Assembly: GCA_963662665.2 (NCBI GenBank)
Contig: CAXXJS010000017.1
Coordinates: 1 to 64,000 of the forward strand
Direction: 5' to 3'
DNA from: Candidatus Latescibacterota bacterium
GTDB taxonomy: Bacteria > Latescibacterota > UBA2968 > GCA-2709665
Length of the DNA: 64,000 nucleotides
Of this stretch, positions 2,323-55,364 are shown one piece after another. The notes under the pieces are model-generated. The model was not told where the DNA came from. It made no database searches and was given only the letters and a program-made list of their open reading frames with translations. The translations under genes and the position numbers were made by a program. Each line of letters begins with the position of its first letter. The stretch's first letter is position 1.

Positions 2323-2596
2323 ATGCCCTTTTTCTTTCTCGCCAAAGAAAAAGGGCCAAAAAGAACGGCGCCGCTCAGACGCCGCGGGGCTGCTTTACCG
2401 CGAATCGCCCCCGTGGCGAAATTGCAGTTGGGCGCCCTACAAGCCTGTCAGATGTACCAGTACTGTTGTGATGGACGGAATAACGCGCAAAAGCCCCAAC
2501 ACCACCACCGGGCGCTTGAAGGGAAAAACCGTGTGATCGGGCGCGACCTACCCCCTGTCCCCTTCCCAAGGGAAGGGGGGAACTGTCATCAACTGA
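2323..2596 (+). repeat. Modular intergenic element, copy A (69-nt variable core 2406-2474)
   Basis: Head ctttttctttctcgccaaagaaaaagggccaaaaagaacggcgccgctc and tail gcgcgacctacccc shared with other copies. Confidence 0.9.
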
Positions 2597-5878: not shown

Positions 5879-5986
5879 GCGCGACCTACCCCCTCCCCCG
5901 TGAGGGCCCCCGTGCCGTCATTGTCTCTATACTGGCGCGGCTATCGCTAACTGATCTCGCCAGTCCGTATCGCCAACCCTCCCCCT
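5879..5986 (+). repeat. 108-bp structured repeat, copy 1 (upstream of rplI)
   Basis: Near-identical to 6674-6781; begins with the gcgcgacctacccc junction of the modular element. Confidence 0.88.
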
Positions 5987-6129
5987 TTCCTTTAGGAGAG
6001 GGGGCCGGGGGGAGAGGTCTCGTCGATTCCATCTGTCAGCTTTCTCCGAGGTCCCTCGCGCTGACATTGATCGAATGGTTTTTCGTCTAACGTCTTCCCG
6101 CTGACCGTACTTAAAGGATGGTACTCACC

Positions 6130-6781: not shown

Positions 6782-7197
6782 CTCCCCCGGGGTGATGTGG
6801 ATTTTGAATTTGGCTTTCGCCTCTTTGTTCTTAGCTGACAGCTGATAGCTGATGGCTTTTTCCGAGGGGGTGAGGGTCTTTTCTTTCACCTGCGTGAAAG
6901 AAACGTCCAATCCTTCGCCGCATTTCACCCCCCGATGCCTCACGCCTTGAATCCCAATACAGGCTGAGGCATTATCTGTATCTATCGTAACGCCCCGGTC
7001 GAAATCCCGCGCCATAGAACCCCCCAGCCCCGTTCCCTCGTCATTTTCCGAAAGCGTAGCGTCAACCATGTTTGTTTGCCCCGCGCCCGGCGTTCAGGTT
7101 GCGTCTGGCATGCTTTTTGCCTCGTTCTCCACCGTTGGTGGTTTCGTCGCCGCAAGGCGGGCTTGCGTGAACGGTCTGATTCTTAGGGAGGTTGGCG

Positions 7198-10100
7198 ATG
7201 CAATTACGTAGATTTCTGGGTCCGGTTCTGGCGATTCAGATGGCTTTCGGCTTCGTCCGCGTTGCCTGGCCGCAGGAAGTCGCGGACACGCGGGGTATCG
7301 CGATTCGCGTCGACAATCCTGCTGCCGGTGCGTGGGCCCGAATCGACGACATGATCGACATTCGCATCCTGACATTCGACGGTATTCTCGACGCCGGTTT
7401 CCGCGTGTCGGTCGTCGACGCCACGCTCGACGACGACGACGTCGGCCTCACCGCCGGTGGTTCCGAAGCCGGGGATGGGTTCGTCTATTACAATATTTAT
7501 ATACCGGATCCGGGCAGTCCTCCACCCGGTGTCGCGTTCGGCGACGGCGAGGCGTCGGGCGTCGACACGTTCAGGGTATCCTTCGCCGTCTCCCCTCAGG
7601 TTACAGCCTTCGAGTCGAGAAACAGCCGCGCGGTGAAAGTTGTGGTCGACCTCGACGCCGCCACGTCAGGCAACGAGTTGAACAACCTGATGGCGGATCG
7701 GAAGATCACCCCCGCATCCTCGGGTTTCGGCGCCAGCAGTGTCGGCGACGGGGTGCGGTTCGGTGTCGATGGCAATCGCCCGATCCACGCGGGCGCCTTC
7801 ACGTCCTTCTCCGTTGTAACGAAAGACCTGGGTGTCGATATCACGGATGAGGGCCTGATCGAGCGCGTGAGGATCAAAAGTGGGGACATGGTCACAATCG
7901 GACTGCGGCTCAACACCGGTAACGTGATAAATGCGGGAGCGTACGGAATCCGGGTCGGAATTGTTGAGGAAGACTCGGCGTTTTCCACGGCGCCAGTTTC
8001 ATTTGAGCTTCTCGGTGACAAGCTGTACAGCGCGAACCTGCGTGAATCCCAGGAAGTCAAGGAGGGGGATTTCGCAGACAACCGGCGGGTACGTATCGAA
8101 GCCTATCTCGTTGATGCCGCCGGCAACCTCGGCGGCGCCTCGATGGGCGCCCCGACCGAGTCTCCCGTCAACGCCGGTCACGGACTTCCCGATGTATTCG
8201 ATCCGGGCGGTGTCGAGTGGATCGCGGACGCTAACTCGCCCTCGATTGCGATCGTCCATCCCCGTCCGGACAGCCCGGAAGACCGGATTTCGGCGGACGT
8301 CACGCAGACGCTTTCCGGTTATATACCCCTGCCCGGTGAGGCTCAGGGTGTTCAGGCCAACCGCAGGTTGAACCCGCTCGAGTTCAAACTCAGCGAAGTT
8401 CCGGACTCAATCAGGATCACTCATGGCGACAGCACGCACGGTATTGGCAGCGGCGCTGTCGATAACCTGACCACACCCGATGAAGATATGGCGCCGACCG
8501 GCAGTGATTCCACTGCCGCGCTCAGTCTTCCGTGGAAATACGACAAGGCCGGCGGGGTACGGGAAGACCTGATGATCGAGGTCTGGGACAGTGTTGGAAA
8601 CAGGTCTTCAACGGTTCTTGCGGGAATCTGGTACGACGAGAGGGCGCCGGTGATCGGTGATCTGTTTCCCGCCGCCGCCGCCGCGCCCAGGGACGCGGAC
8701 AACAACAACGAACCTACCATCAATCTGGCCACCAGGGATCCGGTCTTTACCATCGACGAAGAGCTGGATTCGCTGTCCGTCCGCTATGTCGAGACCGGCG
8801 GAGGCGCCACGGCAATCGAGCAGGGTTTCGGCAGCGGCAACCCTCGCCTGGAGACCATCGGCGGACTGGTGAATTGGCCGGTGAGCGATACGAACTTTTC
8901 CGAACGGAACAGGTATGACTTACAGATTCTGGCGATCGACCTCGCCGGCAACGCAAGCGTGACCGGCGGCGGCACGCTAACCTTTACCAGGGGTTTCCTC
9001 AACCCCAGAGCCGATATATTCAAGGTCGCCGCCGTGCCGGACCAGGCGGACTCGGTGGTTGCCGGTCAGGATTTCTCGATGCGGATTACCGCGCTGGACA
9101 CATCGCTGACCCGCATCGAGGAAACCGACGTTCCCGCGGTGACCTATCATGGAGTTGCGGCGTTGGCGGTCATCGTTTCGGGAGAACAGGCCCGCGCGCT
9201 CACCGGCGTGAGCTTCAGCGGGTTCGGTGTATCCGATGCGCCGGACTTTTCCCTTCCCGCCGACCTGGCGGGCGTGGGTATGGTGGCGAAAGCCGCCGTT
9301 CTGGACGACGACGGATGGAATGCGGGCCGGCGTGACGTCAGGTTCAAATCCACAAAGCCGCTCAGCAATGTCATCGTGATGGCCGCAGCGGGATTCAAAG
9401 ATCCGGTCACCGGGAACGACTCCCTTGCAATCGTGGGGCGGCTCGATGGTCTCGTCCACGTCAGCGTCTCCGAATTGTCGCGGTTTGAGGTAACGGCCAT
9501 CGAAGACCGGGACTCAACCGGCGCCGTCGCTGGCGGGTTTACGGTCCGGGTGGTTCCAGCCGACAAATTCGGCAACCCGAGTATGAAGATCGATCCAACG
9601 CCCGATTCGGGAACGTATGAATCGGTGGCCGTTGCGTTCGCTTCCAGTAACGGCGCGGTAACCGTGCCCTTCGGCCGGCAGGAGGTAGCCCTGGTGGACG
9701 GGACGGAATTCGGTGCGGTGGCAGACGACGTGGACGGGAGTGCCAGGGTCTCGGTTCGGACGATCCGGGAAGACTACGTAACCGACGCGGATGACGACTT
9801 CGCAGCGGCCGATGGAACCGATCCCGATGATACAACCGGCGCCCTGAGGGGCAGCGTGACAGTCGCGTTTGTGCCCGACGGCGGTTCCGAGGCTCCTCCC
9901 CCTGGCACGCCTGCCGCGCCCGCGAACATCGTGGTCGCGGACTATCTCGGCGCGGACGGTCAGGGCGACCAGGGCGGGCTGGTGCTGATCAGCTTCCCGA
10001 ATTCGTCGCAGCACGAGGCCGTGATTCACTACGAGATCGAACGGGAAATTGAAACGACGCTGGAAGGATACGATGAGGATGGTAACGAGATTCACAGCGA

Positions 10101-11868
10101 AGAGCCAATGATGAGGTGGATGCACTGGGCCAGCATCAGCTCCACCTCCGAGGAAGTCAGCGACAGTCTGGGTGGCGACGTGCAGCGCGCAGTGGTCCCT
10201 GCGCTGGACAACGTAGCCACCAACTGGGGCGTCAGGTCCGTTGGCGGCGCCGATGCGACCCGTGTCGGCAAGCGCGTGTTCACGAAGGAGAGCGTGCAGC
10301 AGACGCTGCGTGTGCCGGGCACGGCGACCGATGCTGTTCTGACGGACGAGGAGTTGATGAACCGGTTCAACGCGCCCGAAGACTTCGTCAAAGCGGTCAT
10401 CGGCGATCGGAAGGATCTGATCTTCGTTCCCGTCAGTCCCGACGCGAGCGCGCTGACGGGCAACGCCTCTCTTCCGGAGAATATCCGGCCGGCGACCGCC
10501 GGCGGTCTGCTGGTATCCGCTCGTACGGTCACGGACGCGCCGGTGGCAGCCGTTGACAACGTCCCCCCCGCCGCGGTTACCAACGCTTCCGGCGACGGCG
10601 CGGGCGCGCTGCGTTGGACGGCTTCGGCCGATGACCGGATTGTGGGTTCCATCCCTTATCGTGTCTACAACGTGCCGATCCCGGGTGTGACGGGTTATAA
10701 GGTGATGAGAGGCACGTCTGCCGATGACCTTGAGCAGATTGCGACGCTCGACCCGGGTTCAACCCGCTTCACGGACGAGGACCTGCCGGATGGCGTCGCC
10801 TCGATGGTGTATCGGATCGACGCGTACGACGACAACAACGTCGCAACCGGCGATCTCATCACGGTTGACAACATCTCACTCCGCACCAGGTTTGTGGACG
10901 CCGAGGGCGAACCGGTGTATCTCATACGGCTGCCCTCCCGGGGCGGGAACCTGACGGTTGACTTCGAAGATTTCGTTGCCTTCGCCATGGCCTTCGATTC
11001 TAAGACAGGCGATGCGAACTATAACCCGCAGGCCGACGTCAACGACGACGGCAACGTGGACTTCGAGGACTTTGTTACGGCTGCCGCGTCTTTCGGTCGC
11101 ACAGCCGTGGTTCACGGGGGCGGCAAGATCGCTGTTGTACCGCAGCGCCGGGGCGTCAACTCCAATACGAACATGACGCTCGAACGGGTTGGCGGGAAGG
11201 TGCTGGTTGGCGAGATGATTTCGGTAACGGTATCCGTGACCAACGCTAATGAGCTGACAGGCTTCGGCCTTGAACTGACGTACGACGCGGCCGGGTTCGA
11301 ATTCGTTAGCGCAGCACCGGCGGACAACGATCTGCTGAAATCTCAGGGCGGCGAGACCCCGGTGTTCGGAAACTGGCCGGAAGACGGTCGGGTCCGGGTG
11401 GTCAACGCCATTGTCAACGCGGGTTCCGTGAGCGGCGCGGGTGCGCTCGTGACCTTCACCTTCAGGGTTGCGAGGGAGTTCGAGGACAACGCCAGGTTCG
11501 AGATTGCGAAGGGCGTGGTGTTCGATTCGGAGCAGTTGTCGAACCCGGTGGCTTCACTCGGATCGCTGGAGGTCCGGAGCGCGCCGGCTGAGTTCGCACT
11601 GTATCAGAACTACCCGAACCCCTTCAACCCTCAAACCAGCATTCGATACGATCTGGCGGAAGGCGGCGACGTGGTGCTTCGGATCTACAACCTGCTGGGC
11701 CAGGAGGTGCGCACGCTGGTGCGTGAGCGTCAGCCGGCCGGGCGCTACAAAATACACTGGACTGGAACGGACGACCGCGGCGTACCGGTCTCGAGTGGAA
11801 TTTACCTCTATCAGGTCTCGGTTGCCGGCAGGTTCCAGGATGCCAGGCGGTTGATGTTGCTCAGGTAA
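7198..11868 (+). CDS. Large secreted acidic multidomain surface protein with dockerin-like EF-hand pair, cohesin-like domain and FlgD-Ig/T9SS-A-like C-terminal domain
   Basis: Signal peptide; VDFEDFVAF...ADVNDDGNVDFEDF; ISVTVSV...GFGLELTYD...GALVTFTFRV; LYQNYPNPFNP...SSGIYLYQ. Confidence 0.85.
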   Translation: MQLRRFLGPVLAIQMAFGFVRVAWPQEVADTRGIAIRVDNPAAGAWARIDDMIDIRILTFDGILDAGFRVSVVDATLDDDDVGLTAGGSEAGDGFVYYNIYIPDPGSPPPGVAFGDGEASGVDTFRVSFAVSPQVTAFESRNSRAVKVVVDLDAATSGNELNNLMADRKITPASSGFGASSVGDGVRFGVDGNRPIHAGAFTSFSVVTKDLGVDITDEGLIERVRIKSGDMVTIGLRLNTGNVINAGAYGIRVGIVEEDSAFSTAPVSFELLGDKLYSANLRESQEVKEGDFADNRRVRIEAYLVDAAGNLGGASMGAPTESPVNAGHGLPDVFDPGGVEWIADANSPSIAIVHPRPDSPEDRISADVTQTLSGYIPLPGEAQGVQANRRLNPLEFKLSEVPDSIRITHGDSTHGIGSGAVDNLTTPDEDMAPTGSDSTAALSLPWKYDKAGGVREDLMIEVWDSVGNRSSTVLAGIWYDERAPVIGDLFPAAAAAPRDADNNNEPTINLATRDPVFTIDEELDSLSVRYVETGGGATAIEQGFGSGNPRLETIGGLVNWPVSDTNFSERNRYDLQILAIDLAGNASVTGGGTLTFTRGFLNPRADIFKVAAVPDQADSVVAGQDFSMRITALDTSLTRIEETDVPAVTYHGVAALAVIVSGEQARALTGVSFSGFGVSDAPDFSLPADLAGVGMVAKAAVLDDDGWNAGRRDVRFKSTKPLSNVIVMAAAGFKDPVTGNDSLAIVGRLDGLVHVSVSELSRFEVTAIEDRDSTGAVAGGFTVRVVPADKFGNPSMKIDPTPDSGTYESVAVAFASSNGAVTVPFGRQEVALVDGTEFGAVADDVDGSARVSVRTIREDYVTDADDDFAAADGTDPDDTTGALRGSVTVAFVPDGGSEAPPPGTPAAPANIVVADYLGADGQGDQGGLVLISFPNSSQHEAVIHYEIEREIETTLEGYDEDGNEIHSEEPMMRWMHWASISSTSEEVSDSLGGDVQRAVVPALDNVATNWGVRSVGGADATRVGKRVFTKESVQQTLRVPGTATDAVLTDEELMNRFNAPEDFVKAVIGDRKDLIFVPVSPDASALTGNASLPENIRPATAGGLLVSARTVTDAPVAAVDNVPPAAVTNASGDGAGALRWTASADDRIVGSIPYRVYNVPIPGVTGYKVMRGTSADDLEQIATLDPGSTRFTDEDLPDGVASMVYRIDAYDDNNVATGDLITVDNISLRTRFVDAEGEPVYLIRLPSRGGNLTVDFEDFVAFAMAFDSKTGDANYNPQADVNDDGNVDFEDFVTAAASFGRTAVVHGGGKIAVVPQRRGVNSNTNMTLERVGGKVLVGEMISVTVSVTNANELTGFGLELTYDAAGFEFVSAAPADNDLLKSQGGETPVFGNWPEDGRVRVVNAIVNAGSVSGAGALVTFTFRVAREFEDNARFEIAKGVVFDSEQLSNPVASLGSLEVRSAPAEFALYQNYPNPFNPQTSIRYDLAEGGDVVLRIYNLLGQEVRTLVRERQPAGRYKIHWTGTDDRGVPVSSGIYLYQVSVAGRFQDARRLMLLR

Positions 11869-11932: not shown

Positions 11933-12300
11933 AGGCAGCGCCTGGGTTGCTCCCCCTTTCTTTTGGGAGAGGGGCCGGGGGGAGAGATCTCGCCGCCGAT
12001 AGCCGTGAATTTTTCCGAGCGGTCCTTGGGTTTTGATTCTGGTTTTCGCCTTTCCCTTCGTGTCTTTGCGTGAGCTGAATTTCGTTTTTTGCCACCCACT
12101 ACCGGCTTCTTGGTTTTCCCCTTCTTGTCTTTAGCTGATGGCTGACGGCTGACCGCTGTTTTTCCTGATCGCTGTTCTTTTTCCTTGATTTTTCGGGTGT
12201 CTTGGTCATATATTATCAACACGATAACTGCAATTAATGAAAATGCCCTCTCCCATCGGCGCAAACATCCTCACCCTGCGCCGGGAAGGACGCACATCCC

Positions 12301-13025: not shown

Positions 13026-13420
13026 TAGGTTGCTTTTCGCTACATACAGGTGAACGAAATTGTCCGGAATGCCAGAAGATATGCGGAATATTGCGCCAAC
13101 ATTGTGGTGTTTGGATGTGGCAAAGGTTGGTCGCGTTTTCGCTTTTGTATATATTTATAAGGAGGTGCACACGGAAATGCGATGTTAAACGGTTGTCACG
13201 CATCACACACACCCACAATCACCATTCACACTAACGATTCATCGCAGGAATCGCAGCATAGAGAGAAGGGAGGCGCCCTATCGCCGCTGCGCATCAGGAT
13301 TCAACACATAGCCGCCATTCCGGACGGTTGAAGCAAAATTCAGATTCGGTTTCCGAGGAGTTAACAGGAGTAGAGGTTGTGAGGAAGTTTCCCAGTCGTC
13401 TTTTTTTCAGGGAGGTTGAG

Positions 13421-16400
13421 ATGCACGTTAAAAAGCTGTTGGGTTGCGGGTTTGCCTTTCTGTTTGTTCTTGCCTTTGCCGGCGTTGCATCGGCACAACC
13501 GGACGTTTCCGACGCCCGGGGCACCTGGGTCCGCATCGAGCAACCGGCCGACGGCGAGTATGCCGCGATTGGCGATACGGTCATTGTCGCGGTTTACACC
13601 GTTAGTGCTGCTACCGGTATTACTGTTACAGTCAAGGCGCCAGACGGTGACGATGAAGGTGAAGCGCCTGATGATGTTGCGGGTGGTCTAAGTTTGAACA
13701 ATACTAACCTGGGTGTCTTAGACGACGACCGTGCCGGCGACAGCACCGTCGAACTCGATGTGGGCGATGCAGACGCTACCTTAGTCAAATTTTACTTCGC
13801 TGTTGGTGTCGGCGGCACCGAGCTTCAGGATAACGGTTTGTTTGTTGAGGTCACTATAGCTGGAGGCGGAACTGCCGCAGGTACGATTTCCAGCCTGACC
13901 ACAGACGAACAGATCCTCCCCGGCGCCACCGGTTTTCCCACAACGGCGGTTGGCGACGGGAGGACGTTCGGGATCGACAACCGGCGTCCGGAACATGGCA
14001 CTGCGTTCTCTGACAACAATTTGATTCTGGTAGACTCCAAGAATAACAGGATCAACGGCGCTGAGGTAACTGAGACTGCCGATCCCATCGTTTTCCTCGA
14101 TTTGAACTCCGAGATAAAGGAGGGTGACAACGTCAGAGTCAGTCTCAAAATGGACCGGGGCCAGGTGATCAACTCCGGCGCCTCCAGGGCGACGATCATT
14201 TTTGTGAAGGAAACATTTATGCTCGGTGACCCCGCGGTGGAGACCCTGGTCACTGGCGCAACGCCGGGCCTGATTGATTCGGCGATCACGGTCGTCGAAT
14301 TTACCGATCTTCACGCGAAGCAGCCTCTCGAAAAACCGGTCGACACCTCAGAGGGTGTATTCGGCGACGGCCAGAGGGTCAGAGTCTTCGGGTTCCTTCG
14401 GGACGAGGCGGGCAACCTGGGCGGCACCGCCGCTAATGCTGAAGCCCCGTCGGGTCATGCCGGTTCACATGGCCCCGTGTTTGACGACGACGATGACGAT
14501 CCCACTACGGCCGCTAACGATGACCTTGGTGACGCCACTCAAATTGGTGACGGTACCCTTGACCCAACATACGTCAACCTGTTCCAGATCGACACGACGA
14601 CACCGGAGGTCACGGTGGCGTATCCCAAGTCGGGCGCGACGGATTCCACGTATGTGTCCGCTGCAAACGAACAGAAGTTGTCTTATTATTCCGACGCCGA
14701 CGGGACGCTGAGTGAGATTGATCGTTCGAGCCTGTTGAGGCCGTTGACGTTGAAGATCAGCGAGGCTGTTGACTCGATCAAGGTCTCTCACGGCGACTCC
14801 ACGGCAGCGTACATAACTACTGATGATAATAGTGGCCTGCCGGCCGACGTTAAGAAGGATTTCACATTGGCATTGCCGGTGTGGAATTACGCGGACGGCG
14901 AAGCCGGTATCTCCAAGAAACTGGTCGTGCAGGCTTGGGACGTCGTAGGTAACGAAATGAGTGTTGAGAATGCGGATATCACCTACGACGCTGTTGCGCC
15001 AGAGATCACGAACCTGTTCCCGACTGAGGACAGCGCGCCGAAGGATGACAGTGATAACCCGACGATCTCGCCGCAGACGTGGTTGCCGATATTCACCAAC
15101 AGCGAAGATCTGGACTCGTTGTTCGTGCAGTACGTGCAGAAAGACGCGGTGCCGGCGGATGAAGCAAGCCAGCCTTTCGGCGGGACAAGAGGGGAGCTCA
15201 AGGCGGGACGCGTCCGGCCTGCCATCGACGATACGCTCAAGGACGGCGTGGATTATTACCTCCAGATCATTGCGTTCGACAAAGCGGGTAACGGGAACGA
15301 AGAAATCACCAAACCGTTGAGGTTCGTTGACGAGTTCGAAAACCCGGTTGCCGACTCGTTTATGGTGGCTACGGCGGTAGAGGATCTCGAAGCGGTGGTT
15401 GCTGGCGCCAAACTGGAATTGGATCTGACGGCGCTGGATTCGACGATGACCGCTGCCGAGGGCGCCAACGTCCGAGGAGTCACGTATGGACAGGGCAACG
15501 AGAAGTCACGGGTGCGCCTTGAGGTTTCGGAGGACCAGACCGACCGGCTGGAGGGCGTTGAGTTCGGCGGAACCGGCGTCTCGATCGCCCCGGCGGATAC
15601 CGGGATGGGTATCGCCACGCTTTCCAGCGCAGACTGGGAAGCGGGTGAGCGCAGCGTGACCATCACGTCAGAGATGACGCTGACCGGCGCAATGGTCGTG
15701 GTGGAAGACCTGGACGACCAGGGCGACGTAAGTTTCAGTACGACTTTGGGTCCGTTCAGTTTCGACGCTGCCGTGTTCTCGCAGTTCACGGTTCAGGCGA
15801 TGGAAGACGGCGAGGCAACGGACAACGTCGAGGGCACGTTTCAAATCTCCGTGACGGCGACCGACGAGTTCGGTAACCCGAGCATGAAGAAAGGCAACAC
15901 GATCGACAGCGACGAAGAAGACGAGGTCTATGAGACCATCGCCATCGAACTGTCATCCAACAACAGCCAGGTGCAGGTGCCTGGCGGAAGGCAGGAGATC
16001 GTTGCTGGCGAGAACAGTTTCGACGCGAACGCATCGAATGCGTCGGGCACGGTTGTTATCTCGGTATACACCGAAGGTGCCGCCGAGACCGGGACGGCCA
16101 CGTTGAGCTTCGGTCCTCCGGCGCCGCCTCCGGCGCCTGGCGCGCCTGGTGCGCCCGCTTCGTTGATCGTTGAAGATTACAAGGGGCCCACAGGTGAAGG
16201 CGACCAGGGCGGGTTGGTGATGGTGACCTTCCCGAACTCGGCGGATCACGCCACGGTGGACAAGTATCAGATCTTCAGGGAGATGTCAGTGACCGCCACT
16301 AGTAAGGATACCCTCGGCAACTTCGTGGCGCTGGACGATTCCACGATGATGGCGTGGGTGCCGTGGGCGGCTCTGGAGAGCGAGGATCCGAACGCGGACG

Positions 16401-18121
16401 TACAGCGCGCGGTGATCCCTGCGCTGGACAACGACGCCACCAACTGGGCGGTGGCGGCGATTGGCGTCGGTGGTTCTTCGGACCAGACCCCTGCTACTGC
16501 GAAGCGGGTGTTTACGAAGGAGAGCGTGCAGCAGACCCTCGAGTTGCTGGGTATGCCCGAAGCGGAGCTTCTGACGAACGACGAATTGATGGACCAGTTC
16601 AATGCGCCTGAGGACTACGTCAAGTCGATCCTCGGGGACCAGAAGAACCTGGTCTTCGCGCCGGTGAATCCGGACGTGAGCGTACTGCTGGGCAACGCGT
16701 CGGTGCCGTCGAATATCCGTACGAGCGCGCACGGACGCCTGGCGTCCGAGCGTACGGCCACCGAGGCGCCTGCAGGCGCGGTTGACGACATCGCTCCCTC
16801 GGCTGCAACGGACGGGTCCGGTGCGGTGACAAGCGACGGTGACGCGGCGCAGGTGGCGCTGTCCTGGACGGTTTCGGCGGATGACGGAAGAATTGTTGGC
16901 GGTATTTCGTACCGCGGGTATGTCGTGCCAATTTACGGCTTGAAGGGCTACACAGTGCTGCGAGGCGCTTCGGAAGATGCCCTTGAGTCTATCGGCACGG
17001 TTGCCGCGGGTTCAACGGAGTTCGTGGACATGAATCTTCCCGAAGATCGGCGAAACATTTTGTATCGTATAGACGCGTTCGACGACAACAACGACACGCC
17101 GGGTCAGGTGATCACGGTCCAGAACCTTGAGGTGCGTGCGAAATTCGTGGACGCCAACGGTGGTCCTGTCTACCTGATGGTGTTGGCGCCTGTTGCTCAA
17201 ACCCCCGTGGACGTGGACTTGGAAGACTTTATCGCGTTTGCGGCCGCCTTCGGCAGTCAGAAGGGCGATGATGACTACAACCTGCAGGCCGACGTGAACG
17301 ACGACGGCATGGTGGACTTCGCGGACTTCACCACGGCGCTTGGGTCGTATGGTCGCACGGCGGCGGCGTCTGCGAACAAACTGGCGGTGGTTCCGCAGCG
17401 TCCCGGCCTGAACGCGGATACGGAGATGCGGCTTGAGCTGGCCAGTGAGAAGGTGCTGGTTGGCGAGGAGATCTCGGTCACGGTTTCGATGGCCAACGCC
17501 AAAGCGTTGAACGGCTACGGTCTGGAATTGGTGTATGACGCGGACAAGTTCGAGTTCGTCAGCGCCGTACCCGCCGAGAACGATCTGTTGAAGTCAGAGG
17601 GTGGCGAGACGCCGCTGTTCAAGAACTGGCCGGAAGAGGGCCGGGTCTCGGTGGTCAACGCCATTATCAACGCGGAGTCTGTGAGCGGTGAAGGCGCGTT
17701 GGTGACCTTCACGTTCAAGGTTCTGCGGGAATTCGAGGACAGCGCTCGCTTCGAGATCGCACGGGGCGTTGTGTTCGATCCTGACAGGCTGCAGAACCCT
17801 GTGGTGGCGCTTGGCGCGCTGGACGTGCAGAGCACACCCACGGAGTTCGCGCTGCATCAGAACTATCCTAACCCGTTCAATCCGCAAACCAACATTCCGT
17901 ACGACCTTGCCGAAGGCGGGGACGTGGTTCTCAGGATCTACAACCTGCTGGGCCAGGAAGTGCGGACGCTGGTGCGCGAGCGCCAGGCGCCCGGCCGCTA
18001 CACGATTCAGTGGAGCGGAATGGACGACCGCGGCGTATCGGTTTCGAGTGGAATTTACTTCTATCAGGTCTCGGTTGCCGGTAAGTTCCAGGATGCCAAG
18101 CGGTTAATGTTGCTCAAGTAG
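13421..18121 (+). CDS. Large secreted surface protein, paralog of 7198-11868 (dockerin-like + cohesin-like + FlgD-Ig/T9SS-A-like CTD)
   Basis: GGAGG + ATG 13421, signal peptide ending ASA-Q; same architecture; shared GDQGGLV, KRVFTKESVQQTL, NYPNPFNP. Confidence 0.87.
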   Translation: MHVKKLLGCGFAFLFVLAFAGVASAQPDVSDARGTWVRIEQPADGEYAAIGDTVIVAVYTVSAATGITVTVKAPDGDDEGEAPDDVAGGLSLNNTNLGVLDDDRAGDSTVELDVGDADATLVKFYFAVGVGGTELQDNGLFVEVTIAGGGTAAGTISSLTTDEQILPGATGFPTTAVGDGRTFGIDNRRPEHGTAFSDNNLILVDSKNNRINGAEVTETADPIVFLDLNSEIKEGDNVRVSLKMDRGQVINSGASRATIIFVKETFMLGDPAVETLVTGATPGLIDSAITVVEFTDLHAKQPLEKPVDTSEGVFGDGQRVRVFGFLRDEAGNLGGTAANAEAPSGHAGSHGPVFDDDDDDPTTAANDDLGDATQIGDGTLDPTYVNLFQIDTTTPEVTVAYPKSGATDSTYVSAANEQKLSYYSDADGTLSEIDRSSLLRPLTLKISEAVDSIKVSHGDSTAAYITTDDNSGLPADVKKDFTLALPVWNYADGEAGISKKLVVQAWDVVGNEMSVENADITYDAVAPEITNLFPTEDSAPKDDSDNPTISPQTWLPIFTNSEDLDSLFVQYVQKDAVPADEASQPFGGTRGELKAGRVRPAIDDTLKDGVDYYLQIIAFDKAGNGNEEITKPLRFVDEFENPVADSFMVATAVEDLEAVVAGAKLELDLTALDSTMTAAEGANVRGVTYGQGNEKSRVRLEVSEDQTDRLEGVEFGGTGVSIAPADTGMGIATLSSADWEAGERSVTITSEMTLTGAMVVVEDLDDQGDVSFSTTLGPFSFDAAVFSQFTVQAMEDGEATDNVEGTFQISVTATDEFGNPSMKKGNTIDSDEEDEVYETIAIELSSNNSQVQVPGGRQEIVAGENSFDANASNASGTVVISVYTEGAAETGTATLSFGPPAPPPAPGAPGAPASLIVEDYKGPTGEGDQGGLVMVTFPNSADHATVDKYQIFREMSVTATSKDTLGNFVALDDSTMMAWVPWAALESEDPNADVQRAVIPALDNDATNWAVAAIGVGGSSDQTPATAKRVFTKESVQQTLELLGMPEAELLTNDELMDQFNAPEDYVKSILGDQKNLVFAPVNPDVSVLLGNASVPSNIRTSAHGRLASERTATEAPAGAVDDIAPSAATDGSGAVTSDGDAAQVALSWTVSADDGRIVGGISYRGYVVPIYGLKGYTVLRGASEDALESIGTVAAGSTEFVDMNLPEDRRNILYRIDAFDDNNDTPGQVITVQNLEVRAKFVDANGGPVYLMVLAPVAQTPVDVDLEDFIAFAAAFGSQKGDDDYNLQADVNDDGMVDFADFTTALGSYGRTAAASANKLAVVPQRPGLNADTEMRLELASEKVLVGEEISVTVSMANAKALNGYGLELVYDADKFEFVSAVPAENDLLKSEGGETPLFKNWPEEGRVSVVNAIINAESVSGEGALVTFTFKVLREFEDSARFEIARGVVFDPDRLQNPVVALGALDVQSTPTEFALHQNYPNPFNPQTNIPYDLAEGGDVVLRIYNLLGQEVRTLVRERQAPGRYTIQWSGMDDRGVSVSSGIYFYQVSVAGKFQDAKRLMLLK

Positions 18122-19735: not shown

Positions 19736-19769
19736 GAGAGCCGCCGGACGTCCGTCCGGCGGCTCTTTC
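19736..19769 (+). terminator. Intrinsic terminator
   Basis: gagagccgccggacg-tc-cgtccggcggctcttt. Confidence 0.75.
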
Positions 19770-19776
19770 ATTGGGG

Positions 19777-20221
19777 TGGGTCTCTTTACGCCCCATAGAG
19801 CGCCTCGCCTCTAACGCGTCCGGTCCGGGCGGAAGGGGTTTTTGTTCGCGGCAAGAAACGTGCCGCTCACCAGCAACCTCGAACGCCAGAACCAGGCGTT
19901 CCCTGTTGTCCCGAAAAACTCCAGAACAACAGGTCACCCGCTTCGCGGGCGGAGGTTGGTTCCACGCGCTACCGTACGGCATCACTAACATTTCGTATGT
20001 CGTCAGGTCCCATCGAACGCACGGTTGTGGGGTGGGGGCTTTTCCACGCCATTCCGTCCAGCACAACAGTACTGGTACATCTGACAGGCTTGTAGGCCAC
20101 CCAACTGCAATTTCGCCCCTGAGGATATTCGTGGAAAAGCAGCCCCGCGGCGTTTGAGCGGCGCCGTTCTTTTTGGCCCTTTTTCTTTGGCGAGAAAGAA
20201 AAAGGGCAAGGGAATAGGGGA
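19777..20221 (-). repeat. Modular intergenic element, copy B (core 20058-20126)
   Basis: About 430 bp nearly identical to copy C. Confidence 0.92.
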
Positions 20222-20382
20222 CGTTAGCGGGGAGGGGGGAAATTCTATGCCTATTGATCTCCGGTTTTTCCCTACCCAAAAATTAACCTGGACACGGAAC
20301 GGAAACCAATCAGGTTCGTTAAAGGATTAGGTGGTTGCGGTATACTTATAAAGATAAGAGACAGCGCGAGGAGGGGAAATAT

Positions 20383-23211: not shown

Positions 23212-23713
23212 GGGGGTAGGTCGCGCCGAATCGCAGGTTTTCCCCATCAAGCGCCCGGTGGTGGTGTTGGGTCTCTTTACGCCCCATAGAGCGCCTCGCC
23301 TCTAACGCGTCCGGTCCGGGCGGAAGGGGCTTTTGTTCGCGGAAAGAAACGTGCCGCTCACCAGCAACCTCGAACGCGAGAACCAGGCGTTCCCTGTTGT
23401 CCCGAAAAACCCCGGAACAACAGGTCACCCGCTTCGCGGGCGGAGGTTGGTTCCACGCGCTACCGTACGGCATCACTAAGATTCCGTATGTCGTCAGGTC
23501 CCATCGAACGCACGGTTGTGGGGTGGGGGCTTTTCCACGCCATTCCGTCCAGCACAACAGTACTGGTACATCTGACAGGCTTGTAGGCCACCCAACTGCA
23601 ATTTCGCCCCTGAGGATATTCGTGGAAAAGCAGCCCCGCGGCGTTTGAGCGGCGCCGTTCTTTTTGGCCCTTTTTCTTTGGCGAGAAAGAAAAAGGGCAT
23701 AGAAATAGGGGAA
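23212..23713 (-). repeat. Modular intergenic element, copy C, the longest (core 23549-23617)
   Basis: Contains head, core, all internal modules and the gcgcgacctacccc tail. Confidence 0.92.
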
Positions 23714-23743
23714 TTTAGGGGCGGGGTAGACTGTAGTTCCCAA

Positions 23744-25632: not shown

Positions 25633-25971
25633 TCAGTTGATGACAGTTCCCCCTTCCTTCAGGAAGGGGGATAGGTCGCGCCCCATGGCGCATCTGCCCC
25701 TTCGCGCGAACGGTGGCGGAGAGGGGAGCTTTCCACCGCCCCGTAGAGCGCCTCGCCTCTAACGCGTCCGGTGGCTGAGTGGGGGCTTTTCCACGCGCTT
25801 CCGTCTGGCAGTGAAGTACCGTGGTACGGGATTCGTACGCAGGCCACCGACGCAGATAAATACCCTTGAGACGATTCGTGGAAAAGCAGCCCCGCGGCGT
25901 TTGAGCGGCGCCGTTCTTTTTGGTCCTTTTTCTTTGGCGAAAAAGAAAAAGGACATTGAAATAGGGGAAGT
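25633..25971 (-). repeat. Modular intergenic element, copy D (core 25805-25873)
   Basis: Head nearly identical to C, different core, tail aactgtcatcaactga shared with A. Confidence 0.9.
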
Positions 25972-54620: not shown

Positions 54621-54837
54621 GATGAATGTTTTCTTCCTTCCTTGCAGAATGAAATGTACGGTTTAGCGATAGCTGAGTTTTAAATCCGGCGAAATGTTAT
54701 TCCCCCGGAAGTCACGGTCCGGTCCATCCCGCCTCGCTGCGTCTTTCACATTGGCCTGTCGGCGGAAAACCCACTCAAAAATTGCTTTCCTGCAAGAGAC
54801 AGGCCTTACGTCATCAATCACCTTTCTTTTTCTCTTC

Positions 54838-55098
54838 GTCCTTTTTCTTATCCGCGGAAGAAAAAGGACCAAAAAGAAGCGCGCCGCTCGGCGCGGGGCC
54901 GGTTTTTCCACGAATCACGAAACTGGTGAATACAAACGCGTCTGTCCTGCGGGCGATCAAGCACCCACAAGGCGACTGTGGTGGACGGATCAACGTGGAA
55001 AAACCCCCAACCCCACGATCGTACGGGTAATTGTACACGCGAGGTTCGATACAACGACAATGTGTCACCTTAAGGCGCGGATTCAACGTCCACCTGCG
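54838..55098 (+). repeat. Modular intergenic element, diverged copy F (core 54916-54984)
   Basis: gtcctttttct...agaaaaaggaccaaaaagaa...gcgccgctc head; ttttccacgaat-69 nt-acggatcaacgtggaaaa. Confidence 0.85.
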
Positions 55099-55112
55099 TC
55101 CATATTGTATGT

Positions 55113-55182
55113 GTAGGGGCGACCCTTGTGGTCGCCCGCCTTTCCGCTGCCCGCCACCGGCCGGTTCGCGAACTGCCCCTAC
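55113..55182. repeat. GTAG-type REP doublet
   Basis: gtaggggcgacccttgtggtcgccc ... gcccctac in inverted arrangement. Confidence 0.7.
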
Positions 55183-55364
55183 AAAAACCCAGGGTTTCGT
55201 GAATTGACGTCACGGTACCTTATCGCTGCCCGACGGGGCTCGGTGGGGTCGTCTACCGTCTCACCTGGCACGGCCTTCCGGTGTTTCAATTGCAAAATGC
55301 CAGGATCGGTCGGATCCTGGCATTTTCCTCACGTCGATTGAACGAGCGAAGAGGTTGGAACGCC

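Follow-up and report, generated by a model that had tools for sequence, protein, structure and literature searches.

The window, that is, the whole stretch of 64,000 nucleotides analysed here, is the first part of contig CAXXJS010000017.1 of a Candidatus Latescibacterota genome (GCA_963662665.2) and carries five copies of a dispersed element at 2323-2596 (A, + strand), 19777-20221 (B, −), 23212-23713 (C, −), 25633-25971 (D, −) and 54838-55098 (F, +). The genes beside these copies encode a peptidyl-tRNA hydrolase, an H+-pyrophosphatase, a protein with a secretion sorting tail, an amidohydrolase, a proteasomal-type AAA ATPase, a ferredoxin and a glutamate synthase. Copy A lies between the peptidyl-tRNA hydrolase and H+-pyrophosphatase genes, copy D upstream of the AAA ATPase gene and copy F upstream of the glutamate synthase gene, which is on the − strand. 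The window also includes two paralogous giant genes (1558 and 1597 aa, at 7192-11868 and 13328-18121) having 71-81% identical stretches in common. An earlier, sequence-only reading of the window had placed all five copies correctly; the spans that it assigned to them were too short, since B and C have approximately 430 nt in common at 98% identity.

The copies are described here in the orientation first assigned to them (original orientation), which runs from the head through the 5′ clamp arm, the core and the 3′ clamp arm to the tail. The arm pattern TTTTCCACGAAT-N-ACGGAWNNNCGTGGAAAA picked out B, C, D and F in the window and had no match in 100 dinucleotide-shuffled sequences; copy A, the arms of which are degenerate (TTTACCGCGAAT ... 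CGCGCAAAA), was recovered once mismatches were allowed. Clamp and core together occupy 2394-2492 (+) in copy A, 20040-20138 (−) in B, 25787-25885 (−) in D and 54904-55002 (+) in F, and a terminator-like site lies next to each of them on the other strand (2365-2385, −; 20147-20167, +; 25894-25914, +; and 54880-54895, −, respectively). The core is exactly 69 nt long in all five window copies (2406-2474, 20058-20126, 23549-23617, 25805-25873 and 54916-54984), as had been reported, and the ungapped core identities counted earlier were reproduced to the position: 32/69 for C and D, 29/69 for both C/F and D/F, an identical core in B and C, and 8 differences between A and C. As shuffled core C shared just 17.5 ± 3.6 positions with core D, even the most dissimilar cores of the window are still homologous. 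In the head of approximately 77 nt, C and D were said to differ at 2 positions; we counted 4, a figure that shifts with the boundary chosen.

The whole conserved unit of copy C extends from 23268 to 23723 (− strand in the original orientation, with a terminator-like polarity on the + strand) and is 98% identical with copy B at 19777-20232. A polypyrimidine/polypurine hairpin (GCCCUUUUUCUU..AAGAAAAAGGGC), to which no strand was assigned, is located at 23667-23698; one of its stem pairs alternates between C-G and U-A among the copies (columns 64/94: CG 10, UA 5, GC 1). It is adjoined by an intrinsic-terminator-like site on the + strand (23638-23666), opposite to the original orientation, consisting of a GC hairpin at 23638-23658 and the T-run TCTTTTTG. 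The remaining parts are on the − strand: the 5′ clamp arm TTTTCCACG with a conserved AAT (23618-23629), the core (23549-23617), which forms the loop and has the islands CCUCA, GG, UGNCCU and UG between variable stretches, the conserved ACGGA followed by four variable bases and the 3′ clamp arm CGTGGAAAA (23531-23548), and a tail (23268-23530) built of modules that are found also in other copies. One of these modules, GACGCGTTAGAGGCGAGGCGCTCTA, sits immediately after the clamp in copy D.

Pairing of the clamp and the terminator-like site

In the original orientation, a T-rich or C-rich flank is followed by the polypyrimidine/polypurine hairpin, the linker CAAAAAGAA, a short GC hairpin, GGGG, a few bases and the 5′ clamp arm UUUUCCRYG. 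The sequence GAAU leads from this arm into the core, after which come ACGGA, four variable bases, the 3′ clamp arm CRYGGAAAA with CCCC, and the tail. The assumption that the two arms pair was borne out: 98.9% of 847 cells in the clamp were paired, an invariance partly imposed by the pattern with which the sequences were collected, and both sides had changed at 4 of 11 pairs. The pair lying outside the pattern was free to vary (UA 45, CG 16, AU 13). None of 500 shuffles reached the covariation score of the clamp, and shifting the partner by one to three columns abolished the pairing. Exceptions to Watson-Crick pairing were few, G-U and A-C being equally rare. In copy A, the A-T to G-C compensatory pair noticed earlier is present, together with two mismatched positions. 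An alternative outer clamp, GCACAGCGCG/CGCGCUGUGC, keeps its pairing around the same GAAU, UGGCCU and ACGGA in two copies of this genome and in the neighbouring genus. Clamp variants travel together with core subfamilies (GTG in 32/36 members of one cluster, ACG in 15/17 of another), and the independent compensatory events are thus few. Taken as a whole, the constant scaffold around a far more variable segment of constrained length, as proposed earlier, was found again in the enlarged family. The conserved sequence continues approximately 75-110 nt past one arm and 25-260 nt past the other, so the inverted repeat is internal rather than terminal.

The version with the GCACAGCGCG/CGCGCUGUGC outer clamp also has another head (C53:16161-16247, C50:552-637 and loci L212-L218), and it is the only version seen in the neighbouring genus. 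In copy C, the T-run of the terminator-like site reads CAAAAAGAA in the original orientation, a sequence that mirrors the purine arm of the adjacent hairpin; this mirror relation between the linker and the purine arm AAGAAAAAGG (23658-23698 of the window) recurs at the same place in other copies. On the opposite strand, the T-run TTCTTTTT could lie on the hairpin as a third strand, forming U.A-U and C.G-C triples. The run lengths, 5-5-5 in 93/151 copies, 4-4-4 in 2 and mixed in 5, vary too little to bear on such a triple helix. In copies of relatives (L019, L022 and L034), short palindromes CCTGCCTGC...GCAGGCAGG sit in the region of the GC hairpin, sometimes serially.

In the reading direction of the opposite strand, the complement of the linker, a T-run, comes immediately after the short GC hairpin, a feature overlooked when the strand was first assigned. 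A hairpin with a T-run within 90 nt past the clamp was detected on this strand in 144 of 151 copies vs 4 of 151 shuffles (121/151 copies under stricter rules), and in 125 of the 144 it starts 2-6 nt past the clamp. The same rule applied past the clamp on the original strand gave 15/151 copies and 15/151 shuffles. An independent scan tool called terminator-like sites in all five window copies, those of B, C and D lying on the + strand and those of A and F on the − strand, and distant subfamilies with unrelated heads have such a site as well, in one of them in 16/16 copies. The strand first claimed therefore has to be qualified, as the terminator-like hairpin and T-run after the clamp lie opposite to it. 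Since folding showed no clear strand preference and the G-U and A-C exceptions are equally rare, it is this site by itself that points to the RNA strand. On the original strand, a weak 5-bp hairpin abuts the T-run of the clamp itself in 99/151 copies, and is missing in all 31 copies having the head type of window copies A to D. Judged from sequence, transcripts arriving from either side may be halted by the A-run, hairpin and T-run in copies with the commoner head type. A scan for sigma-70-type promoters near copies A, B, C, D and F gave none on either strand, and other promoter types looked for by eye were likewise not seen. On visual inspection, the genes preceding B and F already have a GC hairpin and a T-rich run of their own at the end, ahead of the element (approximately 19737-19770, + strand, and 55285-55320, − strand), neither of which was listed by the scan tool.

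The orientation of the neighbouring genes was judged by our own crude codon-usage gene caller. In the source genome, the next gene on the terminator side is co-directional in 14/16 copies (copy A added separately), and in other genomes, among copies with at least 2 kb on both sides, in 23/37. Where the element lies between co-directional genes, its terminator-like side points downstream in 44 cases and in the opposite direction in 16. The frequency of the terminator-like site and its possible bidirectionality would also be expected of a cassette that serves passively as a terminator and insulator, like BIME/REP of E. coli or pneumococcal BOX. Such a cassette would stop or dampen transcription between genes and shield the 3′-ends of mRNAs, and its loop would lack a specific partner. 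The strictly intergenic location of the element in the 16 rows examined, the ordinary housekeeping nature of the flanking genes and the composition of the tails, a mosaic of modules common to other repeats, agree with this as well. Nevertheless, we regard such a cassette as unlikely: the genes upstream of copies B and F appear to be provided with terminator hairpins already, the gene on the tail side runs towards the element in only 57/95 cases, and the conserved islands, the constrained loop length and the 93-99% identity of clamp and core between orthologues exceed what a terminator needs.

The core and its conservation

The core length was surveyed in 151 distinct copies with a pattern that permitted 65-73 nt. 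Lengths of 67 nt (18 copies), 68 nt (12), 69 nt (69) and 70 nt (52) were found; the fixed 69-nt core described earlier thus holds for the five window copies, and family-wide it is replaced by a range of 67-70 nt. The per-site entropy in the same 151 copies revealed the conserved islands GG, UG-CCU and UG before ACGGA, and stretches of near-maximal entropy between them, mostly in the 3′ half.

A fold of its own could not be assigned to the core. Its MFE was no better than that of shuffled sequences (mean z-scores of −0.20 and −0.01 on the two strands for 60 of the 151 cores), and only 3.9 of 19.5 predicted core pairs continued the clamp, that is, were centred on the core midpoint, from which it follows that the core is not a palindrome or hairpin. 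RNAalifold, run on both strands with all copies and with six subfamilies, returned differing and poorly supported helices with many broken pairs instead of a consensus structure. Several structures suggested by eye, namely a hairpin CCUCAG..GG, a GGC/GCC helix, a pseudoknot between GGUGG of the core and CCACC of the tail, and a k-turn or loop-E junction, were unsupported too. Complementarity specific to a copy, inside the core or to either flank, was the same within a copy as across copies for each pair of regions tried. A coding core was rejected, as no frame is open in all copies (the best in 92/151) and the ATG present in some cores is not conserved. Mimicry of the anti-Shine-Dalgarno sequence was rejected likewise: the 16S rRNA of the source genome (contig C21) ends in GGATCACCTCCTTTCT and about half of the cores start similarly, with CCTC or CTCC, yet this start is found in just 78/151 and the 8-mer of the 16S 3′-end, ATCACCTC, in 7/151.

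Comparison of orthologous copies showed how strongly the copy-specific sequence is retained. Clamp and core of copy F differ at 1 of 119 positions from the sister species; the surrounding block (54800-55200) is 97-99% identical over approximately 400 nt, and the flanking genes are 79-92% identical. A copy on another contig of the source genome (contig 65) differs from its orthologue at 3 of 119 positions. In two further species pairs, clamp and core are 93-97% identical, the adjoining intergenic DNA 25-75% and the genes 86-99%. The description of the core as a hypervariable payload was not upheld by these values, nor by the co-inheritance of core subfamilies and clamp variants; the core is not a payload, and it is not random either. 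The puzzle left by these data is a length-constrained loop that has no fold, frame or target of its own and yet keeps its copy-specific sequence as conserved as coding DNA.

A constant scaffold that carries copy-specific sequence kept between species, and does so in many paralogues per genome, recalls the guide-like RNA of an RNA-guided enzyme (the omega RNA of TnpB/IscB, the bridge RNA of IS110 or a CRISPR RNA), in which protein binding would fall to the scaffold and the choice of target to the core. We consider this earlier proposal very improbable. The cores had no match longer than 15 nt in their own genome (E 0.21), the element had none in plasmid and phage records and the arm pattern none in viral contigs. 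In the source genome (92% complete) there was no match to TnpB (PF07282) or IS110 (PF01548), no gene family of any such kind recurs beside the copies, and the three reverse-transcriptase genes were assigned to group II introns, with no element there. Moreover, the variable sequence lies in a closed loop broken by islands, not in a terminal guide segment. The reverse-transcriptase genes are located at C24:9048-9713, C61:81626-82291 and C16:124715-125380 (E 1.2e-36 to 1.6e-36), and the one examined lies in a group II intron.

A related possibility, which we rate as doubtful, is that the copies are trans-acting small RNAs, 16 to about 50 per genome, having a common protein-binding scaffold (clamp, junction bases and terminator) and each its own recognition sequence of 30-40 nt in the closed loop. 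If this were true, they would constitute a programmable, guide-like regulatory system peculiar to one Latescibacterota order.

Distribution, turnover and partner enzymes

The source genome (4.86 Mb in 66 contigs, 92% complete) contains 16 full copies, 13 with a 69-nt and 3 with a 70-nt core. A covariance model built from 77 diverse copies recovered all 16 and, in addition, two partial matches with a different clamp sequence. The exact arm pattern was matched in 20 of 41 related genomes, including 14/14 of the same genus, the highest number of matches in any one genome being 49. Among 151 genomes sampled across the phylum, the covariance model was positive in 43, comprising 18/18 of the family of the source genome and 24/30 of a sister family, and in 0/102 genomes of twelve other Latescibacterota families; the three genomes of the source family in which the exact arm pattern was not found in the 41-genome search lay outside this sample. 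Within the 151 genomes, the element occurs only in two families of one Latescibacterota order. Public records matching the element were titled Candidatus Latescibacterota and, in a few cases, Gemmatimonadota. The family had been called unrecognised, and Rfam agreed with this: at the gathering score, the sole match in the whole window was a tRNA-Gln, and copies C and F searched at E up to 10 gave chance-level microRNA and leader matches far under the cut-offs. The parts of the literature on Latescibacteria with repeats or non-coding RNA that were accessible contained nothing relevant.

The dispersed character of the element, evident from the 16 copies, was also reflected in gain and loss between relatives. 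In a syntenic stretch compared among six congeners, individual intergenic gaps contain the element in some genomes and lack it in others. Two of the six have tandem triplets of it, and the core subfamily found at one and the same site varies. In the nearest species, at least 5 further sites are filled that appear empty in the source genome. No base-by-base alignment could be made of the intergenic DNA around the filled and empty sites, and the ends of the element and target duplications are unreadable there. Contigs of four sequencing runs over the window gave nothing but short pieces with joints between repeat copies, which were set aside as assembly ambiguities uninformative on gain and loss. 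Integron attC sites were considered and set aside; the copies are scattered over syntenic loci of housekeeping genes.

In front of the pyrophosphatase gene, two species have a common head, and the clamp, core and tail, from the GC hairpin on, belong to different subfamilies (57 of 119 positions differ). The idea of an exchangeable segment was therefore correct in the sense that clamp, core and tail were swapped together behind a conserved head at one syntenic site. The tails are mosaic: one core cluster occurs with at least 5 tail clusters, which in turn occur with several core clusters, and tail modules recur at varying distances from the clamp. Other repeats were seen in the same intergenic DNA. 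A separate palindromic repeat, CTCCCCCTCTCCC-loop-GGGAGAGGGGG followed by GGGGGGAGAGGTC, is present in the window at 5982-6025 and 11952-11995; the CTCCCCCTCTCCC/GGGAGAGGGGG repeat recurs in the intergenic DNA of the source genome and its relatives and in the tails at loci L020, L023, L025, L036 and L037. Short tandem units resembling GCTGAYNGCTGA adjoin several copies (approximately 2690-2830 of the window and the tails at L016, L017 and L035-L037).

Presence and absence at syntenic intergenic sites, tandem copies (three in each of two relatives) and the genome-specific expansion of subfamilies are all consistent with a selfish mobile DNA element that is non-autonomous, akin to REPINs or MITEs. 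In such an element, the clamp would have to form a hairpin in single-stranded DNA so that an enzyme whose gene lies elsewhere could copy it, and the core would serve as a length-critical spacer. The almost purely Watson-Crick pairing of the clamp also fits a DNA hairpin, and REPINs likewise combine conserved inverted arms and compensatory changes with a spacer that is of set length and less conserved (PMC3116915). The search for an enzyme pointed the other way. As had been noted for the window, no cognate enzyme was visible, and the whole source genome had no match to Y1/RAYT (PF01797), in addition to the lack of TnpB and IS110 genes. The presence of RAYT does not track the element across the 41 relatives, 7 of the 15 element-bearing genomes of the genus, the source genome included, having no match. 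The five Y1 loci examined had no full element and no head hairpin, just isolated single-arm matches with mismatches. Clustering of 234 proteins flanking the copies, judged from the sequences and not by Pfam, gave no recurrent transposase; the families recurring next to the copies were abundant metabolic paralogues only. The core does not form a hairpin, the inverted repeat is not terminal, and orthologous cores are conserved at the level of coding DNA or better, unlike a mere spacer. Mobile DNA of this kind thus seems unlikely to us, and of the earlier suggestion of a non-autonomous mobile element the dispersal, with gain and loss between relatives, was retained, and the assignment to MITEs was not, given the internal inverted repeat and the missing transposase partner. 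In four relatives (G007, G009, G011 and G016), partial Y1_Tnp (HUH) matches covering profile positions 40-121 (E approximately 1e-7 to 1e-10) were found in open frames of 1203-1441 aa; frames of such length are an unusual setting for this domain.

Proposed function and comparison with known systems

The explanation that we favour, with moderate confidence, is that the element is a structured RNA module ended by a terminator, which acts either as a small RNA of its own or as a leader. It would constitute a lineage-specific family of modular, non-coding intergenic units, the constant part of which works as RNA, most likely that of the opposite strand. Read 5′ to 3′ on this strand, variable modules would be followed by the clamp, a predicted long-range helix of 11-17 bp that encloses a loop of 67-70 nt with few conserved islands and copy-specific stretches. 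In most copies, 2-6 bases past the clamp, the GC hairpin and U-run should end the transcript, and the polypyrimidine/polypurine hairpin comes thereafter. Each copy would then yield a terminated structured RNA, that is, a small RNA or an attenuator-ended leader before the next gene, in which the clamp may present the loop to a putative partner that recognises the islands as well as the sequence peculiar to each copy. New copies probably arise by duplication and recombination between copies, and would do so without a dedicated transposase.

The Latescibacterota are uncultured, and the family fills much of the intergenic space near housekeeping genes such as those of glutamate synthase, H+-pyrophosphatase and the proteasomal-type ATPase. 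As terminated small RNAs or attenuators, the copies would represent a major layer of gene control in the phylum; as mobile DNA, they would move without any known hairpin-using transposase. With the covariance model and 151 aligned copies, the family could now be deposited in a database of RNAs or repeats.

Among described systems, the REPINs come closest in form, REP doublets that form hairpins in Pseudomonas and enterobacteria and are mobilised by RAYT transposases; in the GI REPINs, 71 bp separate the two 16-mers (PMC3116915). The features in common are inverted arms, a less conserved spacer of characteristic length, compensatory changes, extragenic location, tens to hundreds of copies and tandem clusters (PMC3116915). 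In contrast to REPINs, the Latescibacterota element has no link to RAYT or Y1 and its core does not pair with itself; furthermore, it has asymmetric junctions (GAAU vs ACGGA and four bases), a strand-specific terminator-like module and strongly constrained orthologous spacers. Two of the three defining features of REPINs, a single symmetric hairpin and a cognate RAYT, were tested and found absent, and the element is consequently not a REPIN.

The resemblance to BIME/REP of E. coli and BOX of Streptococcus pneumoniae is of another kind. These are modular intergenic mosaics of hairpins, co-transcribed with their neighbours, for which effects on termination and mRNA stability have been reported. 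BOX has a variable middle enclosed by outer modules that pair with each other, and BIMEs are known for protein binding. The element resembles both in being a modular intergenic mosaic of hairpin motifs. It has no sequence relation to either of them; its middle is of near-fixed length with islands, and it spans two families of an order.

T-box leaders, attenuator leaders with a variable specificity element, can be compared in their working principle only: many paralogues, a conserved scaffold, a copy-specific segment, and a terminator before a co-directional gene, as in 14/16 copies of the source genome. The differences are that no T-box or leader match was obtained from Rfam and no antiterminator alternative was identified, and that the orientation is mixed in other genomes (23/37) and the downstream genes are functionally unrelated. 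The element thus belongs to the broad kind of structured intergenic repeats and matches no described family; what sets it apart from the described repeats is its asymmetric junctions, a closed loop that is unfolded yet constrained, and a built-in terminator polarity.
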